IMG/VR virus record: IMGVR_UViG_3300013104_000019
Location: 23,474-87,473 of that record
Source of the DNA: a virus
Taxonomy: Duplodnaviria > Heunggongvirae > Uroviricota > Caudoviricetes
DNA: 64,000 bases
Strand: one strand, 5' to 3'
The notes below the pieces were generated by a model. That model had not been told where the DNA came from, did no database searches, and saw only the letters and a list, made by a program, of their open reading frames with translations. A program made the position numbers and the translations under genes. Positions 2,746 through 13,134 of this stretch are shown here, one piece after another; position 1 is the first letter of the stretch; each line of letters starts with the position of its first letter.

Positions 2746-3621
2746 ATGGGCTTAGATGTGTCGCTGTATAAGTGTCCTAACCTCAACTACGCGATGAAGA
2801 TGGAGCAGGCGTACGAAGCGGCGTTGGATCAAGTCTACGAGGAGTGGAATGATTTCTGCAAGAATCATTCACCGACACAGCAAGAAGAGGATGAGTTCAA
2901 CAAGAAACGAATGGCATTGAAGGACAAGTTCGAGATCGAGGGCTACAACCACAAGAGCCTCGAACGGATTCGGTTTGATTCGAAGACGGAGCCGGAGCAT
3001 CTCTTCAAGATCGGCTATATGCGCTCCAGCTACAACGGAGCAGGGATCAACTCGGTAGCGAACGTATTTGGTCTGCCTGATCTGTACACGATCTTCGAGA
3101 TCGACAACGAAGATTACTTTCAGGAACACGACTGGGACACCATTTACCAGAACGTAAAGGACGCGCTGGAGAAGTGGCAAGCGCATGCGAGTAGTCCGGC
3201 TGGTAAGTACTGGGTGCACACCTTCCGTCCGAGATTTGCCAGTAGCAAACTCAGCACTACTGGCCAGCTGATTCCGGAAGGCATCACCAGCGAACACGAA
3301 GCGATTGAGCGTCTGAACGAGAGCTACCTGAATAACAAGGAAGAAATCGACAAAGACGAATGGCGCTTGTCAGGATGGACAAGCCATAAAGGTGAGTTTT
3401 ATCCCAAGCCGCTGAAAGTCACCGCTATCGTCGCTGGTGCTTGGAATCCTGAGCAGCCGCTTCATTTTCGCAATATGCCAGTAACGTATCTGGTGTGTGA
3501 GCGAGAAAACGAGGATACCATTCAGTGGTACGTCACAGCGCTCCAGATCGTTCAAGAGATGGTTGAATGGATTCTGGAGCATCCGGATAAGGATCAGTTC
3601 TTCACAGGCTGGTCAGGTTAA
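2746..3621 (+). CDS. hypothetical protein
   Basis: 291-aa ORF, RBS gaggaggctctATG. Confidence 0.6.
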   Translation: MGLDVSLYKCPNLNYAMKMEQAYEAALDQVYEEWNDFCKNHSPTQQEEDEFNKKRMALKDKFEIEGYNHKSLERIRFDSKTEPEHLFKIGYMRSSYNGAGINSVANVFGLPDLYTIFEIDNEDYFQEHDWDTIYQNVKDALEKWQAHASSPAGKYWVHTFRPRFASSKLSTTGQLIPEGITSEHEAIERLNESYLNNKEEIDKDEWRLSGWTSHKGEFYPKPLKVTAIVAGAWNPEQPLHFRNMPVTYLVCERENEDTIQWYVTALQIVQEMVEWILEHPDKDQFFTGWSG

Positions 3622-3635
3622 GAAAGGAGGAAGCA

Positions 3636-4142
3636 ATGTCGATCTGGTCGGAAAGTAGATTGAAGTGGGAAATCGAGAATGGTCCGTTCTCGTATTTCAA
3701 AAAGTTCAAGGAGGAGCACGAGTCTCGCCTTAAGGAAGCGAAGACTACTGAAGATACCGAAGCATTGGAGCTTGCCAAAGACGCCATCGTGTCGATACCG
3801 GCACGTTACGTTTGCTGGAACAGCGACAACAACATGCCGATGGAACTGGATGGTCGATTGGTCAACAGATACGGTGACGGCCAATTCGTTTTCCGGTGTG
3901 ACTTTGCGTTGCCTACTCCGGCGACCAAGACATATGCAATGCTGTTCGGACTCGACGTCGTCTTCGTACCGTTCTTTGAGTCCGAATTCTGTCTTCTCGA
4001 TGTTCGTTCCTTCAGAGGCATCTTCGAGTGGATGACATCCAATGTTCCGGAAAACGAGAAAAGCTCGCTACCGGAACAACTGGAGAAGGAACTGCGTGCG
4101 TACCAACGTTACCTTTCATTCGAGGGCTATGACACGGAGTAA
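3636..4142 (+). CDS. hypothetical protein
   Basis: 168-aa ORF, strong RBS aaaggaggaagcaATG. Confidence 0.65.
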   Translation: MSIWSESRLKWEIENGPFSYFKKFKEEHESRLKEAKTTEDTEALELAKDAIVSIPARYVCWNSDNNMPMELDGRLVNRYGDGQFVFRCDFALPTPATKTYAMLFGLDVVFVPFFESEFCLLDVRSFRGIFEWMTSNVPENEKSSLPEQLEKELRAYQRYLSFEGYDTE

Positions 4143-4146
4143 CACC

Positions 4147-4518
4147 ATGGAAGAAGACGAGGTCAGAAGACCGACTCACGATCTGTTTTGTCGGCAGTGT
4201 ATCGCAGACAGTCCCAACACGCATGTATCGTGGTTTCTGATGGCCTCATTCGCGTACTACTTCCTGAACGAGTCCCTCATTACCGATGCGTTGTACGATG
4301 AGATTTACCAGTGGCTGGAGAAGAACATCGAACAAATCGATCACGTCCACAAACATCTCATCGAAAAGGACATGTTCTCAATTGGCAGTGCGTACTATCT
4401 GAGAGAATATCCGAAGATCATTCAGGTATCGACGCACAACTTGCTTGATAACTTGCGCTTAACAGCAGCACCGCAACCGAGAGATTTATGGAAAAGGAAA
4501 ACCTGCCCTACGCAGTAG
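4147..4518 (+). CDS. hypothetical protein
   Basis: ORF 4042..4518 trimmed to the ATG at residue 36 (MEEDEV), preceded by ggag. The upstream part overlaps the previous gene. Confidence 0.5.
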   Translation: MEEDEVRRPTHDLFCRQCIADSPNTHVSWFLMASFAYYFLNESLITDALYDEIYQWLEKNIEQIDHVHKHLIEKDMFSIGSAYYLREYPKIIQVSTHNLLDNLRLTAAPQPRDLWKRKTCPTQ

Positions 4519-4724
4519 TGCAGCGCTTGCGACTGGTTGACATCTTGCTCGACCAGCAGGGCTTTATCAATCGCGGAGTATTGATGGAATACTTCGGGAT
4601 TTCGATGCCAGCCGCAAGCAACGATCTCGGACTGTACAAAGAGATCGCTCCGAACAACATGACGTACGACTTGTCGAATAAGACGTACGTGAGAACCGAA
4701 ACCTTTCAACGGGTCTGGAAATGA
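4488..4724 (+). CDS. small hypothetical protein (78 aa), overlapping neighbours
   Basis: ORF with gagag 5 nt upstream. Overlaps the upstream gene by 31 nt and the downstream gene by 4 nt. Confidence 0.35.
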   Translation: MEKENLPYAVVQRLRLVDILLDQQGFINRGVLMEYFGISMPAASNDLGLYKEIAPNNMTYDLSNKTYVRTETFQRVWK

Positions 4725-5332
4725 AATTCATCTTCAACGATCGCAATCGAGCGATTTGCGATGTGTTCAGCCACGCATTGCAAGGTACTCTGCCCAATCT
4801 CGAAGTACGGCATTGCAACTTCGAAGCCATTTCGAAGGACGATTACAAGATCCTTTTTACCCCCGGTAATTCGTACGGACAGATGACCGGGGGTTTCGAT
4901 TTGGCAGTACGTAACGTCTGGCCGGCTGCTGAAGCCTATGTTCAAATGGCAATTAGCGAGTCCCGAAATGGGATGTTGGCGGTTGGTGATTACGTGATGG
5001 TTGGCTTGCATGCGGCTATGTCTTTGATTCCGCAAAAGCGCCTCATCTACGCGCCGACCATGCGCATCCCGATGGTGATTGCCGGTACGGAAAACGTCTA
5101 CTGGGCGTATCGCGCTGCCTTCCAAGCATTAGAAGGAGCGGCGCGCGGGATGATCTTCACTGATGAAGACGCTGTGCTCATCCCTGCTTTTGGGACGAGT
5201 GCCGGTCACATGGACCCGCTCAAAGCTGCGATGCAGTGCAGGCTGGCATACGAGCACGTCCATCGTCCGCCAGTCGAAGTAACGAGCCGGCAGATGTTTG
5301 CTGACCATCAAGCCATTGCTCAATGGGTTTAA
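4721..5332 (+). CDS. macro-domain-like (ADP-ribose binding/processing) protein
   Basis: Segment DDYKILFTPGNSYGQMTGGFDLAV parallels the macro-domain core D-h-IVNAAN..L.GGGGVDGAI (Asn, then a Gly-rich loop, then a hydrophobic A/V). This is a pattern-level call only. Confidence 0.4.
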   Translation: MKFIFNDRNRAICDVFSHALQGTLPNLEVRHCNFEAISKDDYKILFTPGNSYGQMTGGFDLAVRNVWPAAEAYVQMAISESRNGMLAVGDYVMVGLHAAMSLIPQKRLIYAPTMRIPMVIAGTENVYWAYRAAFQALEGAARGMIFTDEDAVLIPAFGTSAGHMDPLKAAMQCRLAYEHVHRPPVEVTSRQMFADHQAIAQWV

Positions 5333-5333
5333 G

Positions 5334-5651
5334 ATGAAAGCAGATCAAGTAAAAGACGCCATCGGGAAAACGGTTACTGTCAATGGTTTCCGTGATCTCG
5401 GAATCGACCCGGACATGCGCCGCATCATCGGTCAGGAATGTGTGGTCGTTAAGCAGTGTAAGAGCGGCCTTGTGCAGATCAAGCACGGCAAAAGCTTTTA
5501 CTCTGTTCCCCTTATCAATCTTGACTTGAAAATCACTGTAACGTTTGATGGTTGGAGTAAATGTGATTCGGGTATGGGGTGCGTAGAAACGGGCGTTTGC
5601 TATGCAATGGCGCATGGCGAACCGGATCAATGCGGCATGAAAAAGGAATAA
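5334..5651 (+). CDS. hypothetical Cys-containing protein
   Basis: ORF 5298..5651 trimmed to ATG (MKADQ) placed directly after the previous stop. Has CDSGMGC..C motif. Confidence 0.45.
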   Translation: MKADQVKDAIGKTVTVNGFRDLGIDPDMRRIIGQECVVVKQCKSGLVQIKHGKSFYSVPLINLDLKITVTFDGWSKCDSGMGCVETGVCYAMAHGEPDQCGMKKE

Positions 5652-5653
5652 AC

Positions 5654-6676
5654 ATGGAACAAAACTATCTGAATACGATACAAGATGTGCTGGATAATGG
5701 CACGTGGCAGAAGAACGAACGCACGGGGGAATTGTGCTGTACCCTCGACGGCGCGATGACGCGTTTTGACATCAGTCAAGCGTTCACGTGTGCGGTGACG
5801 ACGAAGAAGCTCGCGTGGAAGTCGATCACGGGTGAGTTCTGCGGCTTCCTGCGTGGTGTAACGAGCGCTGCTGACTTCCGCACACTCGGTTCGAAGGTGT
5901 GGGACCAGAACGCCAACGAGAACGCTCAGTGGCTCGCCAATGCCTTCCGTAAAGGCGAGGACGACCTGGGCGACGTGTATGGTGCGCAATGGCGGCGCTG
6001 GCCAGCCTATCGGGTTTTGGAATTGGGTGAACATGACAGTCCGAAGGCTAAGCAACTGGAAGCACAGGGTTGGAAACGCGAAGGTTGGGTTGATCCGACC
6101 GAAGGCTGGGGATTCTCCGGTATCCTCTATTCGAAAGAAATCGACCAACTCGGCGATTGCATTCGGAAGTTGATCCTGACGCCGTCGGATCGTCGGATTC
6201 TGTTCCACGGATGGAATCCGGCCAAGCTCGGAGAGATCGCACTGCCGGCCTGCCACCTACTGTACCAGTTCCTTCCCAACGTGGCGCGTCGCGAACTCTC
6301 GCTCGCCATCTACATCCGCAGCTGGGACACCTTCCTCGGCGGCCCGTTCAACATCGCGGAGGGTGGTCTGCTGCTCGAACTCGTCTCGCGTCTGACGGGT
6401 TTCAAGGCCAAGCGTGTGACGATCTTCTCGGGCGATACGCACGTCTACGAGAACCATCTGCCGATGGTGCAAGAGCAACTGAAGCGCGAACCGTTCGATT
6501 CGCCTCGTCTCGTGATCGATCGTTTCATTCCCACGTCGGAAGAAATGGCGTTGATCCGAGATCCGAATACGCGCGTCGATGTTGCTATCGATTACATCAA
6601 CAAGGTGGAGCCTTATCACTTCAAGCTGGATGGCTACATCCACCATCCGGAACTGAAAGCACCCATGGCGGTGTAG
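5654..6676 (+). CDS. thyA: thymidylate synthase
   Basis: Conserved ThyA blocks are present (WKSITGEFCGFLRG, HGWNPAKLGEIALPACHLLYQF with the catalytic Cys, FNIAEGGLLLE, GDTHVYENH). RBS aaaaggaataaacATG. 340 aa with insertions relative to E. coli ThyA. Confidence 0.9.
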   Translation: MEQNYLNTIQDVLDNGTWQKNERTGELCCTLDGAMTRFDISQAFTCAVTTKKLAWKSITGEFCGFLRGVTSAADFRTLGSKVWDQNANENAQWLANAFRKGEDDLGDVYGAQWRRWPAYRVLELGEHDSPKAKQLEAQGWKREGWVDPTEGWGFSGILYSKEIDQLGDCIRKLILTPSDRRILFHGWNPAKLGEIALPACHLLYQFLPNVARRELSLAIYIRSWDTFLGGPFNIAEGGLLLELVSRLTGFKAKRVTIFSGDTHVYENHLPMVQEQLKREPFDSPRLVIDRFIPTSEEMALIRDPNTRVDVAIDYINKVEPYHFKLDGYIHHPELKAPMAV

Positions 6677-6757
6677 CACTAAAAACTCATCGGCTGGAGC
6701 ATTATGTGGAAGGCTGCAAAGTCTTCCACTCGTACGAAAGCAAAAAAGGAGACCGCG

Positions 6758-7009
6758 ATGTCGGCTGCTTTGATGGGGGTTGTAGGTGAAACATTGGGGT
6801 TGATCCAAGAGAAACTTTTCCACGGACATTTCGACGCATCGGAGCGCGAAGAAATATACGGGGATGCAAAGGAACTACTCTTCAACAACAAAATCCCGCC
6901 AGAGGAATCCAAGCTGCGCGCGAAGTCGCTCGATGAACTGGAATCGAGATATCCGGAACTCGTGTCCTATCTCATCTCCGGCAAGCTAACTTCGGTTCGT
7001 TGGTGCTAA
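6758..7009 (+). CDS. small hypothetical protein
   Basis: ORF trimmed to the ATG after strong RBS aaaaggagaccgcgATG. N-terminus MSAALMGVVGE resembles the start of the next gene. Confidence 0.5.
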   Translation: MSAALMGVVGETLGLIQEKLFHGHFDASEREEIYGDAKELLFNNKIPPEESKLRAKSLDELESRYPELVSYLISGKLTSVRWC

Positions 7010-10738: not shown

Positions 10739-11108
10739 AAACTATTCCCCGGAACGCGGAATCATGGAAGGTTTCAAGAAGATGAACTACGCGGTGATCG
10801 ACGACGACACCAAGCAGGCCGTCTACCCTGCATGGCAGTTCGTCGAGCCGGTTCCGGATATGATTCTGGAAGTCATGAAGCTGTTTCTCGTCAACGAAGC
10901 CGTTCATGCGAAAATGCACGGGTTTTTCGTGACACAGGAAGACAACTTGAACGAACTGTCTCCGGCCGAAGTTTTGGCCGGCAGGACCTTCCCCAAGCAA
11001 GAGCCGCTGCATGCCTCGCAGCTGCGCATCCTCAGTCTGCCGCCTGAAGAACGGCTGCGGCGGGTGCTGGAAGTCGCCAAGGACTACATCGCCGAAATCA
11101 CCCAATAA
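10719..11108 (+). CDS. hypothetical protein
   Basis: 129-aa ORF, RBS cacggagcgataATG, 20-nt overlap with the upstream gene. Confidence 0.5.
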   Translation: MTTLPVENYSPERGIMEGFKKMNYAVIDDDTKQAVYPAWQFVEPVPDMILEVMKLFLVNEAVHAKMHGFFVTQEDNLNELSPAEVLAGRTFPKQEPLHASQLRILSLPPEERLRRVLEVAKDYIAEITQ

Positions 11109-11118
11109 GGAGAATGAC

Positions 11119-11682
11119 ATGCGGGTAATCGGAAACGTAACTGCGTATTACTCGAAAGATGATTACCCCAGTCATCACTATCTCTGTAACTTCCGGGTGA
11201 AGACCGTGGACTTCACCTCGATGGAACAGATGATGATGTTCAGCAAGGCGATGCTCTTTGGTGACAAGGAAGCCGCGCACGAGATCATGTCCACGCAGAA
11301 CTGCCAAGCGCAGAAGATGATTGGACGGCGTGTCAAAGGTCTTAGGGGCGGGAAGTGGGACGATGAAGACAGGAAACTCTGGGACGAGAAGTGTGACCAG
11401 ATTGTCTTCATCGGTAATCGCGAGAAGTATCGTCAAAATCGTGTCTTGATCTCGTTGTTGCTTTTAACGGGTGACACCATTTTGGTGGAAGCTTCGAAGA
11501 AGGACGTAATCTGGGGATGTGGGTTGGATGAGCGAGACGACCGCATCGCTGATCCGAAGAACTGGACTGGCCAGAATCGTCATGGCCAAATCCAGATGCG
11601 CGTGAGGCAGTACTTCAGGGACCATCCGGAGGCGAAGAAGCTGGCTGATAATGCTGTGCTCTTTAACTTCGATAAGGATTAA
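11119..11682 (+). CDS. NADAR (YbiA-like, DUF1768) domain protein
   Basis: Trimmed to MRVIGN after RBS aaggagaatgacATG. Motifs GNVTAYYSKDDYPSHHYLCNF, EQMMMFSKAMLFGD, LLLTGDTILVEASKKDVIWGCGLDE match the NADAR fold signature (SNF..., EQ..QA.KA.F, LL.TG...LVEAS..D..WGxG). Confidence 0.7.
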   Translation: MRVIGNVTAYYSKDDYPSHHYLCNFRVKTVDFTSMEQMMMFSKAMLFGDKEAAHEIMSTQNCQAQKMIGRRVKGLRGGKWDDEDRKLWDEKCDQIVFIGNREKYRQNRVLISLLLLTGDTILVEASKKDVIWGCGLDERDDRIADPKNWTGQNRHGQIQMRVRQYFRDHPEAKKLADNAVLFNFDKD

Positions 11683-11684
11683 TC

Positions 11685-12197
11685 GTGCAACCCTGTAGCT
11701 GCGGTTATGTGAATTGCTCGGATAACGAGTATTGTGGTAAGTGCGGTCGTCCCTTCATCGAGAAGAAGACTCGCTACTATTGCAGGCAGTGCGCGTGTGA
11801 GCGCAAGCAGGCAGTGTGTCAAAAGTGTGGTGGCGAGTGTTTCACACCCTCGATCGATTGGGAAGAACCGAGGTTGCCTGACATCGACAAGATTCGCGCG
11901 CTTGCCAAAGAGATCGGCTACGCTATTGGCGTTCATGGCACGCTTGAGCGAGACTTGGATGTGATTGCGGCTCCGTGGACCGAAGAAGCACTCAAGTACA
12001 ACTGGCGTGAGGTGATGGACCATATCGCCAAAGGAATGAATGGACGAGTGGTGGAGGCCAGTTGGAAACCTTTGGGAAGACGGGCTTGCACAATTCTCAT
12101 CGACGGCTGGTACAAGGACATTGACTTGTCAGTCTGTCCGATCCTTATTCAGAAAGGAACACAAGAAGATGAAACATCTGGTGGTGTATCACAATAG
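11685..12197 (+). CDS. Cys-rich zinc-ribbon protein (GTG start)
   Basis: N-terminus CSCGYVNCSDNEYCGKCG...CRQCACERKQAVCQKCGGEC has four or more CxxC pairs. RBS aaggattaatcGTG. Confidence 0.5.
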   Translation: MQPCSCGYVNCSDNEYCGKCGRPFIEKKTRYYCRQCACERKQAVCQKCGGECFTPSIDWEEPRLPDIDKIRALAKEIGYAIGVHGTLERDLDVIAAPWTEEALKYNWREVMDHIAKGMNGRVVEASWKPLGRRACTILIDGWYKDIDLSVCPILIQKGTQEDETSGGVSQ

Positions 12198-13134
12198 CTG
12201 CATGGATGGTTTTGTGTCGGCGTGGATTGTTTATCATTCGCTGATTCGTCGGGGAGTTGTGGAGGACGACATCGAATTTCTCGGAGCGGACTACGGTGAT
12301 CCGATTCCGGACATGACGGGTAAGAACGTCTTTATCGTCGACTTCTCGTGGTACAACGTCGAGAGCTTTCTCAAGCAAGTTGAGAAAGCAGTCGAAGTGA
12401 AGATGCTCGATCACCACAAGGAAGCGTACAAAGTCTGGAAGGATGTCAAGCTTCCGGCCAACATGATCTATAAGCACGAATTGCCGCAATCGGGCGTCGG
12501 AGTTGTGTGGGATTATTTCCACCCGCACACTCATGCACAAATGCCGCCGATTCTTGCGCACATTCAGGATCGCGATTTGTGGAAGTTCAACATCAAAGGC
12601 TCGCGACAAATCCATGCATTCTTGAAGTCTAAGGGCTTCTTGCTGCGTGATACGGATCGGGACACTTTTTTAGCCAAGCTCAAAGAGTTCGGCGCTAACT
12701 ATGCGTGGCTATCTGTCGGTGCATTGCAACCGCTTTACACGATCGGCCAAGCGATCATGGATGCCGAGACGGTTTTGGTCTGCTCGATTCTGGAGCGCAA
12801 CAAGACCTATGCGGAATTCACCTGCTACGGACTGAAGGACGATGATTCGGGAGACATGGAACCGAAGAAACGCTATTTCGTTCCAGTAGCGGAAATGCCG
12901 CATGAACTGGCTGATGAAGCCGGCGACATCATGGGGCATGACGATCCGTTCTCGATTACTTACGAGACCAACTGGGCGTTGGGTAAGCGTCGTTTCTCGG
13001 TTCGTAGCCGTAAAGGATACGGAGTTGATGTCGGGGAAATTGCCAGAGCCATGGGTGGTGGTGGACACCAACATGCAGGTGGTTGGTACGACTCGATCTG
13101 GCTGGACTTTCCGTTCCGTATTACCCGCAAATGA
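12169..13134 (+). CDS. DHH/DHHA1-family phosphoesterase (NrnA/GdpP-like nanoRNase or cyclic-nucleotide phosphodiesterase)
   Basis: Trimmed to MKHLVVYHNSCMDG (DHH motif I H-N-x3-DG). Later MLDHHKEAYK (the DHH motif) and GGGGHQHAGGW (DHHA1 GGGH motif). RBS agaaaggaacacaagaagATG. Confidence 0.75.
   Translation: MKHLVVYHNSCMDGFVSAWIVYHSLIRRGVVEDDIEFLGADYGDPIPDMTGKNVFIVDFSWYNVESFLKQVEKAVEVKMLDHHKEAYKVWKDVKLPANMIYKHELPQSGVGVVWDYFHPHTHAQMPPILAHIQDRDLWKFNIKGSRQIHAFLKSKGFLLRDTDRDTFLAKLKEFGANYAWLSVGALQPLYTIGQAIMDAETVLVCSILERNKTYAEFTCYGLKDDDSGDMEPKKRYFVPVAEMPHELADEAGDIMGHDDPFSITYETNWALGKRRFSVRSRKGYGVDVGEIARAMGGGGHQHAGGWYDSIWLDFPFRITRK

Follow-up and report, generated by a model that had tools for sequence, protein, structure and literature searches.

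A Ymx7-like stand-alone macrodomain, predicted not to be of the DarG type, encoded by an uncultured jumbo phage

Does a large phage with a NADAR gene carry a second ADP-ribose eraser, and on which ADP-ribosylation chemistry would it act? This question is raised by a gene in a 64,000-nucleotide stretch of DNA from an uncultured phage of the Caudoviricetes (positions 23,474 to 87,473 of the IMG/VR record IMGVR_UViG_3300013104_000019), which was analysed as a whole and is called the window in the following. An original prediction, made from the sequence alone, had placed a macro-domain-like gene on the + strand at 4721..5332 and had suggested that, together with a NADAR gene about 6 kb downstream, it could erase two types of ADP-ribosylation, as seen for DarG and NADAR against DarT toxins. 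Both genes are where they were expected: the first, encoding 203 aa, was called as coding by a crude codon-usage caller within a long run of + strand genes, and the second matches Pfam NADAR with an expectation value (E) of 2.1e-36. No other ADP-ribose-processing domain is as common in large phages as the macrodomain, which 56% of jumbo phages carry (PMC9503650), and a pair of erasers, one for each of two chemistries, has already been demonstrated elsewhere, since phage T4 encodes Tk.4, a macrodomain of the AdfM type, and also the NADAR enzyme AdfN, which acts against DarTG1 (bioRxiv 10.1101/2025.11.20.689424). AdfM, as described in PMC13309987, is a DarG2-like macrodomain that removes DarT2 adducts, examples being PhiKZ gp104 and PhiPA3 gp108.

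When the window protein was searched as a single sequence, Pfam Macro_2 gave E = 1.9e-4 and 21.3 bits, with a gathering cut-off of 27 bits, the NCBIfam model 'ADP-ribose-binding protein' gave E = 3e-5, and phmmer against the PDB retrieved 1NJR, the structure of yeast Ymx7 (YMR087W), at E = 0.029. The protein also matches PHROG 2613, a family of unassigned function, at E = 3e-31. Since the single-sequence matches to macrodomains were weak, profiles and structure prediction were required. A profile built on 18 sequences, namely homologs from 200-330 kb metagenomic contigs and from Burkholderia phage FLC9, matched 1NJR over its full length from residue 1 (E = 2.7e-8), and a second one, built on 78 diverse family members to which all residue counts given below refer, matched it at E = 1.3e-19, again starting at residue 1. 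The next matches of the second profile were TTHA0132 (9e-8), the DarG macrodomains (4e-6 and 7e-6), and then macroH2A and YmdB. At family level, Macro_2 was found in 64/78 members (E<=1e-3, best 9e-11) and Macro in 61/78; good family-level matches together with an individual score below the cut-off indicate that the window protein is a divergent relative rather than a canonical Pfam member. The AlphaFold2 (AF2) model, with a predicted local distance difference test (pLDDT) score of 92.2 and a predicted template modelling (pTM) score of 0.90, has the three-layer alpha/beta/alpha fold of the macrodomain superfamily (Pfam clan MACRO). Foldseek against the PDB returned 70 matches at E<=1e-3, with 1NJR at the top (4e-11), followed, at 1e-5 or weaker, by DarG and further macrodomains; the best 50 of the 70 were all macrodomains, macro-scaffold designs or macro fusions. 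The original prediction would have been abandoned if neither profile nor structure searches had reached a macro fold; instead, both did, at 1.3e-19 and 4e-11 respectively. These matches establish the fold, and that the window protein is a macrodomain is virtually certain.

The protein belongs, very probably, to the clade of Ymx7, with which it is grouped, rather than with DarG, MacroD or Poa1p, by an N-terminal extension, loop 1 and the strand-loop at residues 110-117. The extension, a beta-alpha-beta unit at residues 1-35, aligns with Ymx7 only, so that the homology to 1NJR spans the full length. In loop 1, DDYKILFTPGNSYGQMTGGFDLAV aligns to SPGNSYGYLGGGFDKA of 1NJR, and the family pattern GNSYGxMxGGFD recurs in Ymx7 as GNSYGYLGGGFD, N50 and D60 of the window protein pairing with N80 and D90 of 1NJR. 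The spacing typical of an ADP-ribose pocket, which had been noticed in this segment, was confirmed as N50-SYGQMT-GG-F-D60: N50, G53, G57, G58 and D60 are identical in 78/78 members and position 59 is I, V, F or L, which gives the family motif Nx6GG[VLIF]D. The segment 110-117 reads YAPTMRIP in the window protein and H-V-P-T-V-V-A-P in Ymx7; the family has no exception at M114 and P117 and keeps P112 and T113 in 77/78 members and R115 in 64/78, while position 110 is Y in 51/78 and H in 22/78, Ymx7 having H145 there. The glycine-rich loop 2, with G162 invariant and G158 in 69/78, follows strand 151-154 and precedes helix 166-181 in the AF2 model, and aligns with the loops GLCTGYAG, LGTGVGG and LGVGNGG of 1NJR, 2DX6 and DarG. 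Asn80, Asp90 and His145 were reportedly proposed as catalytic in Ymx7 by Kumaran et al. in 2005. The two proteins are about 21-22% identical, and Ymx7 (PDB 1NJR, 1TXZ, 1TY8; Pfam Macro_2 PF14519) differs in being eukaryotic, in its 284 aa with extra insertions as compared with 203 aa in the phage protein, and in having PTVVAP where the window family has an invariant PTM(R)xP.

An active hydrolase that is not of the DarG type is the likely product, as judged from these motifs. 1NJR was deposited in the PDB as an ADP-ribose-1''-monophosphatase, and YMR087W, the sole studied representative of the clade, converts Appr-1''-p (ADP-ribose-1''-phosphate) to ADP-ribose in the metabolism of a tRNA-splicing by-product and is without activity in removing mono-ADP-ribose from proteins (de-MARylation) (PMC6397177). 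The same paper assigns Poa1p to the ALC1-like clade; Poa1p (YBR022W; PDB 6LFQ) also has a macro fold and a reported Appr-1''-p phosphatase activity. On the phage side, the domains Macro, NADAR, SLOG and Nudix co-occur in DNA viruses above chance, and it has been argued that the phage versions process mainly low-molecular-weight ADP-ribose derivatives (Iyer et al. 2022, PMC9503650). The window follows this pattern, in that it encodes a circularly permuted YpsA-type SLOG protein (cpYpsA; FLC9 homolog at E = 1e-61), which is a third domain of the NAD/ADP-ribose network besides macro and NADAR. The contexts of the family are moreover free of toxins: at four bacterial loci the members stand alone, the genes around them vary and resemble housekeeping genes, and no ADP-ribosyltransferase (ART), toxin partner or recurrent defence context was seen beside them.

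Considering what the one studied relative does, the lack of toxins in the surroundings and the joint occurrence of Macro, NADAR and SLOG, we favour a Ymx7-like, stand-alone, active macrodomain working on a small ADP-ribose derivative, a reading to which we give as much credence as we withhold; the preference for a small molecule over a macromolecular substrate, taken by itself, is tentative and falls slightly short of an even balance. The ADP-ribose moiety would be bound in the canonical cleft, and the Asn/Asp loop, with assistance by substrate and water as in MacroD and Ymx7, would hydrolyse the 1'' (or 2'') substituent of the distal ribose. Candidate substrates would be Appr-1''-p, which Ymx7 uses, O-acyl-ADP-ribose or an immune signal derived from ADP-ribose, and the position of R115, next to the catalytic-site residue, hints at an anionic leaving group. 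Macro, NADAR and SLOG proteins could thus form a toolkit that clears ADP-ribose derivatives made during infection.

Several points weigh against this interpretation. With 21.3 bits, the window protein lies under the Pfam Macro_2 gathering threshold of 27 bits; studies of the clade concern one yeast protein and no member from a phage or a bacterium; the position corresponding to the putative catalytic His145 of Ymx7 is a Tyr (Y110); and the pocket geometry is predicted from alignments. The phage precedents, AdfM and AdfN, act on macromolecules, and a MacroD-type loop 1 equally fits an enzyme that frees proteins or nucleic-acid ends of ADP-ribose bound through an ester or a phosphate. The called and scanned genes of the 64-kb window, which covers about a quarter of the ~245-kb genome, include no ART, sirtuin or second macro at Pfam E<=1e-3, and no KptA/Tpt1, 2H phosphoesterase or RNA ligase either, so that, as for these last three, there is no local source of Appr-1''-p.

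The main rival is a MacroD-like mono-ADP-ribosylhydrolase, which would remove ester-linked ADP-ribose from Asp/Glu of proteins, or phosphate- or 2'-OH-linked ADP-ribose from RNA or DNA ends, in order to counter a host ART defence other than DarT or to reverse modifications made by the phage's own ARTs. MacroD-type hydrolases (E. coli YmdB, human MacroD1/2, OiMacroD, Af1521) are also found as stand-alone bacterial genes, and their loop-1 motif Nx6GG[VLI]D, with catalytic Asn and Asp, is shared by the window family, which adds F to the residues found at position 59. YmdB, OiMacroD and Af1521 were significant matches by profile and structure, R115 beside the residue aligned with the DarG Lys would suit an anionic leaving group here as well, and members in temperate phages (Gifsy-1, SEN4/5, Chuche) occupy a cargo position by tail-fibre genes, which is typical for host-interaction genes. 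Macrodomains of RNA viruses are moreover known to de-MARylate proteins (PMC9503650). The similarity remains far below that to Ymx7, with profile E values of 8e-4 for YmdB and 0.045 for MacroD1 against 1e-19, and the MacroD-type enzymes differ from the window protein in the 110-117 strand-loop, in loop 2, which is G[V/I/A][Y/F]G in MacroD and GTSAG in the window protein, and in having no N-terminal extension. No ART was seen among the scanned window genes or beside the bacterial and phage homologs examined, and the sole member of the clade to have been studied reportedly does not de-MARylate proteins (PMC6397177). Taken together, we consider this rival rather unlikely.

A broader possibility is that the PTM(R)xP macro clade provides jumbo and temperate phages with a third enzyme for countering host defences, with a target beyond the thymidine adducts of AdfM and the guanine adducts of AdfN. 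Among PhiKZ-like phages the gene keeps its place beside thymidylate synthase, and it is retained together with AdfM-type macros and NADAR; candidate targets could be RNA ADP-ribosylation (CmdT-like, 2'-OH or phosphate-linked) or the TIR-derived signals histidine-ADP-ribose (His-ADPR) and glycocyclic ADP-ribose (gcADPR). We regard it as unlikely.

As for the analogy with DarG that was part of the original prediction, a DarG2/AdfM-like antitoxin mimic would strip the ADP-ribose added by DarT2 from thymidine in single-stranded phage DNA, NADAR handling the guanine adducts. The AdfM/DarG2 macrodomain (PDB 5M3E, 5M3I) shares with the window protein the macro fold and the conserved loop-1 Asn, N50 being equivalent to N23 of AdfM, and AdfM is likewise phage-encoded, small and stand-alone, with NADAR in the same genome, a pairing known in phages (bioRxiv 10.1101/2025.11.20.689424; PMC13309987). 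Moreover, the window macro could be the only one of its phage, since no AdfM ortholog on its ~245-kb contigs was found among the 120 listed of 138 matches to FLC9 gp362. However, AdfM/DarG2 belong to an ALC1/TARG1-like clade and have the Lys and Trp of FPTKxxW where the window family has Met and Pro. In DarG, K80 is catalytic and W83 stacks on the thymine at the cleft entrance, the TARG1 counterpart being K84, and MacroD1, PARG and ARH3 are unable to remove thymidine-ADP-ribose (PMC9967889). In hidden Markov model alignments to DarG (5m3i/5m31), whose PDB chains are offset by ~10 residues in agreement with the K80/W83 numbering, the invariant M114 stands opposite the first Lys of FPTKKHW and the invariant P117 opposite the Trp, while PhiKZ AdfM retains both residues (FPTKDNW). 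By hhalign, the family profile reached a probability of 99.8% (E = 1.9e-27) with PhiPA3 gp271 but of 41% (E = 2.8e-4) with PhiKZ gp104 and 11% with T4 Tk.4; PADLOC, a set of defence-system protein models, gave no match to the window macro at E<=0.01, and phmmer with gp104 or Tk.4 as query found nothing in the window. Furthermore, tblastn detected a gp104-like gene and a window-type homolog at separate loci in six phages (PhiPA3, HHBS36_1, HPP-Temi, Noxifer, KpXa_1 and KpZh_LPS_45), and FLC9 also encodes both types at different loci. According to passages of PMC13309987, PhiPA3 deleted of gp108 becomes DarTG2-sensitive, although gp271 is a separate gene, and these passages describe no change of gp271 in the deleted phage; separate loci and this sensitivity argue against redundancy between the two macro clades. 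On the strength of its motifs, the window protein would not be a thymidine-ADP-ribose DNA glycohydrolase of the DarG2/AdfM type, and the antitoxin mimic has very little probability. Of the two-eraser idea, therefore, the macrodomain and the presence of two to three ADP-ribose-processing domains in the phage stand, while the likeness to DarG, given the replacement of K80/W83 by M114/P117 and the weak hhalign scores, does not.

A non-catalytic reader or sponge, sequestering an immune signal (gcADPR, His-ADPR) or binding ADP-ribosylated targets, has precedents in pure-binder macrodomains (macroH2A, ALC1), in the His-ADPR-binding macro domain of ThsA and in phage sponges for TIR signals (bioRxiv 10.64898/2026.06.04.730250, and work cited there), but is highly improbable, since an Asn and an Asp strictly invariant across >3,000 clusters, housekeeping-like bacterial genes included, better fit an enzyme, and a single-copy chromosomal gene in diverse bacteria is not expected of a sponge.

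Table 1. Position of the macrodomain gene, its motifs and related genes in the window.
Feature	Position	Strand	Remarks
78-aa winged-helix gene	4488..4724	+	directly upstream; stop overlaps macro start (ATGA)
Macrodomain gene	4721..5332	+	ATG start, 203 aa, stand-alone, Ymx7/Macro_2-like clade (very probable)
Loop-1 / ADP-ribose pocket segment DDYKILFTPGNSYGQMTGGFDLAV	4838..4909	+	residues 40-63
Loop-1 residue codons	N50 = 4868-4870; D60 = 4898-4900	+	
Motif Y110-A-P-T-M114-R115-I-P117	5048..5071	+	at DarG/TARG1 catalytic 'PTK' strand-loop position
Loop-2 Gly-rich segment F157-G-T-S-A-G162	5189..5206	+	predicted diphosphate-binding loop
Thymidylate synthase	5654..6676	+	Pfam Thymidylat_synt E=7e-71; sole conserved neighbour of macro gene
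NADAR-domain gene	11119..11682	+	Pfam NADAR E=2.1e-36; PADLOC candidate-defence PDC-M42C E=6e-36
cpYpsA SLOG-domain gene	46451..46993	+	Pfam cpYpsA E=3.4e-10, above gathering score

The family is large and widespread. An exhaustive profile search retrieved 3,170 representative clusters at E<=1e-3, 353 of them at E<=1e-30, from bacteria, phages and giant viruses, mostly as stand-alone proteins of ~200 aa, and in BFVD the same fold was found in giant viruses, PhiPA3 and Noxifer (template modelling score ~0.8), the T4-type Tk.4 being distant. Phage homologs include PhiPA3 gp271, FLC9 gp267 and proteins of Noxifer, PA1C-like phages and Klebsiella/Serratia jumbo phages of ~300 kb, as well as the macro proteins of the prophages Gifsy-1, SEN4 and SEN5, and the 'Appr-1-p processing' proteins of phiRSL1 and Sinorhizobium phiM12; they have the same motifs as the window protein at 26-42% identity, FLC9 gp267 reaching 42%. 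Their labels ('tail protein', 'Appr-1-p processing', 'hypothetical') are annotations by similarity or by position, and the JGI names 'O-acetyl-ADP-ribose deacetylase (regulator of RNase III)' and 'phage tail protein' were likewise set aside as transferred names. Published work on PhiPA3 gp271 gave no clue to what the protein does or where it localises. Among the bacterial loci, the Hymenobacter member (L010 1-1301 / 5001-5591) has an RtcB RNA ligase gene at a distance of ~4 kb, and FemAB-family genes flank the member at two Chloroflexi loci (L011, L013); both were rejected as partners and judged to be lineage synteny at few loci.

Metagenomic contigs of ~245 kb match the window at 94-98% identity, and the window carries PhiKZ-type capsid and prohead-protease genes (PhiKZ_MCP, Peptidase_S80), while a nucleotide search with positions 3600-7000 against 50,697 phage records gave no match. 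The closest cultured relative, FLC9, was detected at protein level only. Its complete genome (LC667451.1) was assembled for scanning, and its macro locus is syntenic with the window. All its genes are annotated as 'hypothetical proteins'; it encodes the Ymx7-like macro gp267 (E = 4e-40), NADAR and SLOG proteins and, at 294360-295281 (L020 360-1281), tandem AdfM-type macros, gp362 and gp363, which match gp104 at 6e-20 and 1.5e-5. FLC9 gp382 (314707-316632) is a chimallin homolog (E = 2e-28 to PhiKZ gp54), from which it is suggested that FLC9 forms a phage nucleus. With these genes, FLC9 may be a chimallivirus that forms a nucleus and encodes an anti-DarT2 factor.

Thymidylate synthase (ThyA) follows 1-2 small genes downstream of the macro gene in six metagenomic relatives (L001-L006; 42-99% identity) and in PhiPA3 (gp271..gp274), and FLC9 (L007) has the same gene order, with the genes annotated as hypothetical only. 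We read this adjacency as an inherited gene order of the PhiKZ-like lineage and not as a functional operon. The window thymidylate synthase has 340 aa as compared with the 266 positions of the Pfam model, indicating insertions, and it is the most divergent stretch with respect to the near-identical contigs (86-95% identity, with flanks at 98%), with unaligned gaps at 6011-6130 and 6469-6633 and two open reading frames in L001; this divergence may be due to mosaicism or to an intervening element.

The other neighbours are more variable. The ATGA overlap indicates that the upstream 78-aa gene is probably co-translated with the macro gene. The near-identical proteins of L001-L004 carry a precomputed Pfam WHD_BrxR assignment (a winged helix of the BREX-regulator type), which was not reproduced for the window protein in our own Pfam and PADLOC scans. 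The gene is present in close relatives only, being absent upstream of the macro gene in L005-L007 and PhiPA3, and in the FLC9 clade its place is taken by a small membrane protein. In near-identical contigs (94-98%), the macro gene is separated from the following one by a gene for a 97-aa HicB-like antitoxin, e.g. at 10620-10965 of L002, which is missing at 5340-5390 of the window (~51 bp vs ~346 bp), an indel between otherwise collinear phages. The winged helix-turn-helix gene, the FLC9-clade membrane protein and the HicB-like gene were all rejected as partners, as they are not conserved.

As for the rest of the window, the NADAR reading frame opens at 11011 and probably starts at M37, as in the near-identical contigs, where 187 aa are called. 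Two genes past it, at 12040-13134 (+), lies a DHH/DHHA1-family phosphoesterase gene (Pfam DHH E = 3e-6, just under the cut-off), whose product could be an (oligo)nucleotide phosphodiesterase relevant to signalling defences. The protein of 577 aa encoded at 18523-20256 (+), at first taken for the major capsid protein, was recognised as a YadA-like fibre protein, since it matches phage tail-fibre and hemagglutinin/invasin-like proteins; this protein, whose C-terminal half shares 62% identity with an FLC9 protein, is likely a fibre and is probably the source of the YadA stalk and anchor Pfam matches in the batch scan of 13-38 kb. Cargo unusual for a phage appeared in the family counts of batch Pfam scans of 13212-63960, namely a cyclophilin-type peptidyl-prolyl isomerase (E = 3e-48), a papain-family cysteine protease (2e-22), SPFH/Band 7 (3e-26), a dCTP deaminase-like protein (3e-32), an RNA polymerase alpha C-terminal domain-like protein and an SNF2 helicase.

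The gene is thus a fairly ordinary one for a jumbo phage, for which the domain call is correct and unsurprising, and the co-occurrence of Macro, NADAR and SLOG in large phages has already been described. A role has so far been demonstrated for the DarG-like AdfM branch only, whereas the window macro represents a different, very large branch, widespread and biochemically almost unexplored, with yeast Ymx7 as its one studied member. The substrate of this branch, if found, would give a function to thousands of proteins that now bear the names 'macro domain', 'Appr-1-p processing' or 'tail protein', and might expose another ADP-ribose-based host defence.

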